Shown: in pieces, positions 55,044 through 55,114 of the stretch
How the letters are laid out: every line of letters starts with the position of its first letter
How positions within the stretch are numbered: the stretch's first letter is position 1
Sequence record: NC_048186.1
DNA from: Escherichia phage vB_EcoM_KWBSE43-6
Reading direction: 5' to 3' (one strand)
DNA: 64,000 nucleotides
Made by a program: the position numbers and the translations under genes
Notes under the pieces: model-generated
Databases searched by the model: none
What the model was told of the DNA's origin: nothing
Seen by the model: the letters and a program-made list of their open reading frames with translations, nothing else

Positions 55044-55114
55044 TGTTGAATCCAGGATTCGAACCTGGGATACCTGCCTTACAGGCGAGTCGCTTTGCCT
55101 CAGCGTTATTCAAC
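55044..55114 (-). tRNA. tRNA-like gene, anticodon GUA by hand fold (class I, atypical)
   Basis: Acceptor GTTGAAT/ATTCAAC, perfect T-arm CCAGG-TTCGAAT-CCTGG, D-arm CGCT/AGCG; anticodon stem has a C-A mismatch; no encoded CCA. Confidence 0.4.

Follow-up and report, generated by a model that had tools for sequence, protein, structure and literature searches.

The minus strand of the window (the whole 64,000-nt stretch of phage DNA analysed here) carries a 71-nt tRNA-shaped RNA gene, termed X (55044-55114), which very probably belongs to a real, selected and non-canonical tRNA-like family. On balance we take X to be a non-decoding tRNA mimic that binds a putative partner, and we lean to the same degree towards a window copy that does not decode codons. 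The gene is more than chance, since it is kept at 98-100% identity in 14 Taipeivirus records and has covarying homologues in unrelated phages. What was already known is the gene call, which is in GenBank; what is new is a distinct family of putative tRNA mimics, found here in phage sequence only, with an unconstrained 'anticodon'.

The ARAGORN program calls X a tRNA-Tyr of 71 nt with anticodon gta. In a search of 4.5 kb against the Rfam tRNA model RF00005, X scored 41.5 bits (model positions 1-71, E = 1.6e-06), above the gathering score of 29 and with a full-length cloverleaf match, and no family except tRNA was above threshold at the locus. This score is the lowest among the seven tRNAs of the cluster. 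The acceptor (7 bp), D (4 bp) and T (5 bp) stems are fully Watson-Crick, and the D loop reads GAGGCAA. A sequence-only reading had noticed a gene of class I size in which the acceptor, D and T arms fold well, a CTGTAAG loop with GUA, a C-A mismatch in the anticodon stem and no encoded CCA, and all of these hold. The Rfam alignment reproduces the arms and singles out one pair of the anticodon stem as non-standard; this stem has a C29xA41 mismatch next to U28.G42. The bases directly 3′ of X are AAC, so that CCA is not encoded. CCA is encoded by the six neighbouring tRNAs (their ARAGORN ends lie 3 nt past the Rfam ends). The same reading suspected its own anticodon register; a wrong register is ruled out, as ARAGORN and the Rfam alignment concur on the formal anticodon GUA (55082-55080), and ARAGORN returned neither another anticodon nor a lack of a tRNA call. 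Beyond what that reading listed, X departs from the tRNA norm in its core, where A8 and G14 replace the near-universal U8 and A14 and C10-G25 replaces G10-C25. In the loop, G38 faces C32. The parts of X and the other genes of the cluster are listed in Table 1.

Table 1. Parts of gene X and neighbouring tRNA genes, with positions in the window
Feature	Positions	Strand	Remarks
tRNA-Met	55920-55995	-	ARAGORN
tRNA-Ser-GCU	55416-55501	-	ARAGORN
tRNA-Ser-UGA	55323-55409	-	ARAGORN
tRNA-Asn	55240-55315	-	ARAGORN
X upstream spacer, CCA-AAUUGGUGCCA	55115-55128	-	Partly common to the copy in N4-like phages (BLAST)
X acceptor stem, 5′ strand GUUGAAU	55108-55114	-	Pairs with 55045-55051 (AUUCAAC); 7/7 pairs covary
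X core: A8 A9, D stem CGCU/AGCG, D loop G14-A-G18G19-CA-A21, A26	55090-55107	-	Near-invariant, non-canonical
X 'anticodon' arm, CUCGC-CUGUAAG-GCAGG	55073-55089	-	Invariant U28.G42 and C29xA41; GUA at 55080-55082
X variable loop, UAUC	55069-55072	-	4 nt, class I; invariant in 10 types; U44 can pair with A26
X T arm, CCAGG-UUCGAAU-CCUGG	55052-55068	-	Canonical elbow partner of G18G19; 3/5 pairs covary
X discriminator, A73	55044	-	Followed by AAC, not CCA
Canonical class II tRNA-Tyr(GTA), 84 nt	54542-54625	-	ARAGORN; Rfam 58.4 bits; R1 22.6 bits; outside the X family
tRNA-Gln	54308-54381	-	ARAGORN

In the transcript the order of the cluster is Met, Ser-GCU, Ser-UGA, Asn, X, class II Tyr and Gln, and a terminator-like site lies 3′ of tRNA-Gln (54255-54232). 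The canonical class II tRNA-Tyr that the earlier reading had placed beside X is confirmed by both programs. The spacer between tRNA-Asn and X (55126-55233, minus strand) starts with GGGUGU and ends with ACGCCC-A-CCA, which gives a 6-bp terminal stem followed by ACCA, and it is probably a decayed tRNA. No second structured RNA was detected there, the interior folding no better than shuffles (z = +0.69); in the spacer 54626-55043, which was searched for the same purpose, folding gave z = -1.48 against shuffles.

The window lineage is the Klebsiella phage genus Taipeivirus (Ackermannviridae, ∼158 kb, related to phage May). X is present in 14 of the 344 phage records that share part of the cluster; all 14 are Taipeivirus, the identity of 98-100% includes the flanks, and most of these records label X as tRNA-Tyr (e.g. 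CPT_May_027). X and the real tRNA-Tyr assort independently in sister phages: both genes occur in May, KP6 and the window phage, X is the sole 'tRNA-Tyr' of PWKp5 and MDA2066, the class II gene occurs without X in K5lambda5, and Madison is without either. In the sister phages that lack X, no remnants of it were found with the covariance model of the family. The Taipeivirus cluster is itself a mosaic: when window 54300-56000 is set beside the loci of near-identical phages (L030-L034), either two Ser genes or one Trp gene are found, and the 'Tyr' genes vary independently.

A copy of X is also carried by HS106 and GADU21, two N4-like phages of Klebsiella (genus Efbeekayvirus, Schitoviridae). The BLAST match to the window is ∼91% over 85 nt (55128-55044), and within the RNA a hand count gives 4 substitutions and 1 inserted base (∼93% identity). 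That the match stops exactly at the 3′ end of X indicates that the RNA gene itself moved between unrelated phages of one host genus. The acceptor pair U2-A71 of the window copy is A2-U71 in the Efbeekayvirus copy, which has the same class I body and, with C33 in its loop, is called tRNA-Ser (gga) by ARAGORN. A CCA-AAUU(G) motif is seen 3′ of many tRNAs in the clusters of both genera (window 55115-55128; most tRNAs in L001-L006); it may serve as a processing signal in both, or it may testify to an exchange of tRNA genes between the two groups of phages.

Pattern scans of IMG/VR, JGI metagenomes and GTDB genomes brought in further homologues, namely L009/L017, L010/L018, L011/L012/L024, L013, L025, L035 and L038, and the X family amounts to ∼10 distinct sequence types. 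It is rare, with 16 of 50,697 phage records and a handful of IMG/VR contigs. All members lie on viral contigs or on metagenome contigs with phage-type tRNA clusters. Several metagenome matches in the scan were chance matches in coding DNA, and a bacterial origin was rejected because the three matches on bacterial-genome contigs were all chance ones, in coding sequence and with no tRNA call. When 5,426 complete E. coli genomes were searched by blastn with the 44-nt core of X and an E limit of 10, not one match was obtained; for these genomes the core is therefore not a copy or mimic of a host tRNA core, and it is also absent from E. coli prophages.

A covariance model, R1, was built from eight X types. 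The training types score 82-97 bits (window copy, 86.8), two divergent types found later score 65 and 72 bits, and the best ordinary tRNA reaches 41.1 bits in ∼347 kb of mostly phage tRNA-cluster sequence. The R1 search found one X copy per phage. Against RF00005, the members other than the window copy score 32.7-40.6 bits, and ARAGORN calls four of the ten types, as Tyr, Ser, Phe and Ser. X usually lies within tRNA clusters; in L038 and L035 it stands alone between protein genes.

The X cloverleaf is under selection. In the alignment of the ten types 92.6% of the cells pair, versus 29-43% with slid partners, and none of 500 shuffles reached the observed covariation score. All seven acceptor pairs and three of the five T-stem pairs change on both sides and stay paired, although with only ∼10 types, several of them closely related, these counts rest on few independent events. 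The inner body of the molecule is nearly fixed in sequence. Identical in 10/10 types are A8, C10-G11-C12, G14, G18G19, G23-C24-G25 and A26, followed by C27-U28-C29, C31, G39, A41-G42-G43, U44-A45-U46-C48 and most of the T loop; U28.G42 is always present, C29xA41 is always unpaired and A26 can always pair with U44. Position 9 varies, being either A or G, as do the 13-22 pair (U-A in 8 types, unpaired in 2) and the 30-40 pair (G-C in 8, unpaired in 2). A selected fold with an inner body constrained in sequence is the pattern expected of a specific recognition surface.

As controls we used 123 ordinary tRNAs called by ARAGORN in the same loci. A8/G14 occurs in 0/123 of them versus 10/10 X types, and U8/A14 in 105/123; the fixed C29xA41 together with the A8/G14 core is likewise absent from the controls. 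X therefore lacks the U8/A14 reverse-Hoogsteen pair of a canonical decoding tRNA. The acceptor/T minihelix and the elbow formed by G18G19 and the T loop are canonical throughout the family. X is in this respect a pseudo-tRNA, with a tRNA-like fold that is devoid of conserved tRNA features and yet kept by selection. Among the members the discriminator may be A, C or U. None of them encodes CCA, which is also absent in 54 of the 123 control phage tRNAs and hence commonly so.

These data bear on whether X could be a non-functional relic, a mere passenger derived from a tRNA gene by scrambling or by loss of the variable arm. X is dispensable, being limited to 14 of the 344 cluster-sharing records, it has the lowest tRNA score of the cluster and no CCA, and the probable decayed tRNA lies just upstream. 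A relic would not be expected to show, between unrelated phage families, compensatory changes at 10 of the 12 pairs of the acceptor and T stems, a near-invariant core, zero indels or decay in the 14 Taipeivirus records and a transfer between Ackermannviridae and Schitoviridae with its structure intact, and we regard this explanation as very improbable. The sequence-only reading had offered a pseudo-tRNA; that proposal survives only if the term is taken to mean a tRNA-like RNA with, probably, no decoding function, and is rejected, on the covariation, if it is taken to mean a decaying gene.

Variation across the family is concentrated at loop positions 32-35. The loop is CUGUAAG in the window, CCGGAAG in Efbeekayvirus, CCGAAAG in L011, UCGAAAG in L025 and L035, CUAGAAG in L038, CUC-GGAA-GAG in L009, CCC-GGAA-GGG in L010 and CCAACUAG, of 8 nt, in L013. 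The scaffold thus presents the triplets GUA, GGA, GAA and AGA, or else a GGAA tetraloop or the 8-nt loop (lengths of 4-8 nt); a canonical decoding tRNA would conserve its anticodon among orthologues, and the X family does not. The arm of L009 and L010 is 18 nt long and fits a tetraloop hairpin, and the two differ by one compensated pair adjoining the loop. Between L013 and L025 the acceptor and T stems are identical and the loops unrelated. Position 33 is C in most types, versus U in 94/94 control tRNAs; U33 is found in the window copy and, elsewhere in the family, only in L038. All ten types have a standard 32-38 pair (C-G in 7, U.G in 2, U-A in 1), and C32/G38 occurs in 1/94 control tRNAs.

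Folding with ViennaRNA gave a cloverleaf for every member, with the third arm as a long interrupted stem capped by 3-6 nt. For the window copy the predicted minimum free energy structure is a slipped hairpin, GCCUGU-AAG-GCAGGU, in which G34 and U35 are paired. By the nearest-neighbour model, which ignores tertiary structure, modifications and protein binding, the open 7-nt loop lies 6.6 kcal/mol above this minimum and makes up 0.0002 of the ensemble; the corresponding shares are 0.09, 0.29 and 0.93 for the neighbouring tRNA-Asn, tRNA-Gln and tRNA-Met. Despite its U33, the window copy is not predicted to offer the open 7-nt loop with unpaired positions 32 and 38 that a canonical decoding tRNA has.

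The Tyr reading of the earlier note is borne out as a software call; as an identity it fares less well, because the triplet differs from phage to phage, which makes it most likely incidental or a recent, lineage-specific change. Outside the window lineage members are devoid of the identity set of their nominal isotype (e.g. GGA with no long arm, GAA with U73), and these isotypes cannot be right, since a tRNA-Ser requires the long arm and the discriminator of the GAA members is U73 or C73. We favour an incidental Tyr look, since a G-N-A-A loop of any kind will be read as the anticodon of a UNY codon; the GUA of the window copy would then be a by-product of the C-Y-G-N-A-A-G form of the loop.

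The window copy nevertheless deserves separate consideration. MiaA needs A36-A37-A38, and A38 is found in tRNAs reading UNN codons; X has G38 in its place. The determinants of bacterial TyrRS are A73, U35 (with G34) and G1-C72 (PMC9976931), and the window copy carries all of them. U33, GUA, A73 and G1-C72 are combined, within the family, only in Taipeivirus X, so that a chargeable copy is possible, and U33 and U35 appear from the alignment to be derived in the window lineage. As an alternative to an incidental resemblance, it is not far-fetched that this lineage was re-tooled into a weak class I tRNA-Tyr or a Tyr-tRNA look-alike. X does not have the long arm of class II bacterial tRNA-Tyr, its variable loop being of 4 nt, and the other Tyr tRNAs in the examined loci are all 82-87 nt long. 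Phages can carry class II isotypes in a class I format, as illustrated by a 74-nt tRNA-Leu(UAG) of class I size in L025 (5776-5849, plus strand; loop CUUAGAA, U8, A73, Rfam 57.6 bits), which looks canonical otherwise and functional and is unrelated to the X family.

A phage tRNA-Tyr, that of T5, rescues phages from the degradation of tRNA-Tyr by the PtuAB of retron-Eco7 (PMC11555353), and phage tRNAs with anticodon-loop variants have been proposed to evade anticodon nucleases (PMC10264068). Against this background Taipeivirus X could be a working, aberrant class I tRNA-Tyr that receives CCA from the host enzyme, is charged by the TyrRS of the host through A73, U35 and G1-C72 and reads UAY codons, and whose odd core and missing long arm might let it escape a host nuclease that recognises normal tRNA-Tyr. 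Acceptance by ARAGORN and Rfam with GUA in register, the U33 that is rare in the family, the TyrRS determinants, the two phages with X as their sole 'tRNA-Tyr' and the class-I-sized tRNA-Leu(UAG) all speak for it. We consider it a minority possibility, as pairing of C32 with G38 is possible, folding predicts a closed or slipped loop, G38 replaces the A38 of UNN-reading tRNAs, C29xA41 and A8/G14 are fixed and absent in the 123 controls, the closest relative, which cannot be a tRNA-Ser, has C33 and the triplet GGA, and the Rfam score is the lowest of the cluster.

For the reading that we prefer, a non-decoding mimic, X would be co-transcribed with the tRNA operon, excised by RNase P and 3′ exonucleases, and probably given a CCA; RNase P, the exonucleases and the CCA enzyme read only the minihelix and elbow. 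The invariant core and the rod-like 'anticodon' arm would then bind a putative tRNA-binding partner, of host or phage. The most plausible role would be that of a decoy or sponge in the conflict between the phage and host factors that target tRNAs. We can only infer this decoy step, because no protein gene is common to the X flanks across lineages: an all-against-all comparison of the ORFs in loci of seven lineages found no shared protein gene next to X, and the cross-lineage matches at these loci were mostly translated tRNA genes. In the Pfam search the flanking genes matched tail needle knob, baseplate, N4 gp49, UvsX/UvsY-like and weak HNH/ART families, none of them informative, and the 297-aa neighbour of X in L013 had no tblastn match in the 50,697 phage records. 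A more specific proposal, which we hold to be unlikely, is that X is a horizontally mobile mimic scaffold whose fixed, non-canonical body binds a factor of host or phage and whose loop is re-written in different phages (GUA with U33, Tyr-like, in the window copy; GGA, GAA or AGA in others) to imitate different host tRNAs, acting as a decoy for, or competitor of, anticodon-directed defence nucleases or other anticodon-reading enzymes. If true, such a re-written-loop decoy would add a new class to the anti-defence elements that are based on RNA.

The location of X is relevant to a further alternative, in which X is a cis-acting processing or stability element, a tRNA-shaped punctuation that directs RNase P or protects RNA ends and has no function in trans. 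X is always inside operons, in L010 and L038 it comes directly after a stop codon and ahead of the next gene, a U run lies 3′ of X in L011, L013, L025 and L038, and the minihelix and elbow that RNase P uses are canonical. RNase P has no need for the near-invariant D arm, anticodon stem and variable loop, and in tRNA clusters the ordinary flanking tRNAs would already supply processing sites; hence we judge a purely cis-acting role improbable. In L038, X (5818-5894, minus strand) is flanked by a UvsX-like RecA gene (5900-7078) on one side and a weakly UvsY-like gene (5044-5499) on the other, and here X directly follows the stop codon and precedes the U run.

Compared with known RNAs, X resembles a canonical elongator tRNA (RF00005) in its stems of 7, 4, 5 and 5 bp, G18G19, the UUCGAAU T loop and a score that passes the gathering value. 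It differs from canonical tRNAs in A8/G14, C10-G25, the fixed C29xA41, the pairable C32-G38 and the unencoded CCA, and in having homologues with other triplets, C33 or loops that are not of 7 nt. With bacterial tRNA-Tyr the window copy shares GUA, A73 and G1-C72, but not the long variable arm of class II. mascRNA and viral tRNA-like structures are tRNA-shaped; they interact with tRNA-processing enzymes although they do not decode, and their anticodon region is reduced or closed. X is similarly tRNA-shaped with a closed anticodon region; those RNAs, however, are eukaryotic nuclear or plant-virus 3′-terminal and of other architectures, whereas X is a free-standing gene of dsDNA phages. The identity rules of the viral structures are treated in PMC9976931.

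By analogy, the nearest described kind would be the pseudo-tRNAs or tRNA-like small RNAs outside translation, such as tRNA-Other of Bacillus cereus, whose chromosomal gene borders a genomic island and whose product is lysylated poorly and has a part in T-box and stress regulation (PMC3399842). Both are called tRNAs by software with a sense anticodon, are devoid of conserved tRNA features and have a proposed extra-translational role; X differs in being phage-borne, mostly in tRNA operons, and in sequence, and the likeness is one of description, with no homology claimed. Like the counter-defence phage tRNAs (PMC11555353, PMC10264068), X is phage-encoded, clustered, accessory and mosaic, with variation concentrated in the loop. 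Unlike them, since they are otherwise canonical, decode and have a fixed anticodon, the X family varies its triplet, position 33 and loop length on a non-canonical body. A literature search found no published description of the X family. A 2023 survey, in the part available to us, lists a candidate phage RNA, 'DNAVirus_1423', that ARAGORN sometimes calls tRNA-Tyr and that may correspond to X.

Phage tRNA genes have come to be regarded as weapons against host immunity that targets tRNAs, and annotation pipelines accept any cloverleaf with a triplet. X is deposited as tRNA-Tyr in more than 10 phage genomes, with relatives called tRNA-Ser or tRNA-Phe, and our analysis suggests that none of the labels Tyr, Ser and Phe describes the function of the family. 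If X is a conserved mimic with an odd fixed core, it points to a tRNA-binding partner in Klebsiella phage infection and possibly to an RNA decoy. Should X instead prove to be tyrosylated, it would represent a naturally occurring tRNA-Tyr of class I that works with a bacterial TyrRS, with a bearing on tRNA identity and orthogonal tRNA design.

Some other features of these loci were recorded. In L035, X is enclosed by a perfect inverted repeat of 19 bp (CUGCAUUGCAAAGACCCGA / UCGGGUCUUUGCAAUGCAG; 13290-13440, plus strand), and this 13.7-kb locus has zero ARAGORN tRNA calls. Just upstream of the X homologue of L009 there is a tRNA match of 132 nt (1017-1148, plus strand; Rfam 46.4 bits), which corresponds to an insert of ∼60 nt. 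L018, a 174-kb phage contig, has two ARAGORN 'tRNA-???' calls on the minus strand (7550-7640 and 4729-4806); one, of 91 nt, has a 4-base anticodon, UAAA, in the loop CUUAAAG (C32/G38), and the other a 2-base anticodon. In the window, an ORF of 155 aa (50655-51122, minus strand) has sub-threshold Pfam matches to ART-PolyVal (ADP-ribosyltransferase) and DUF3990.
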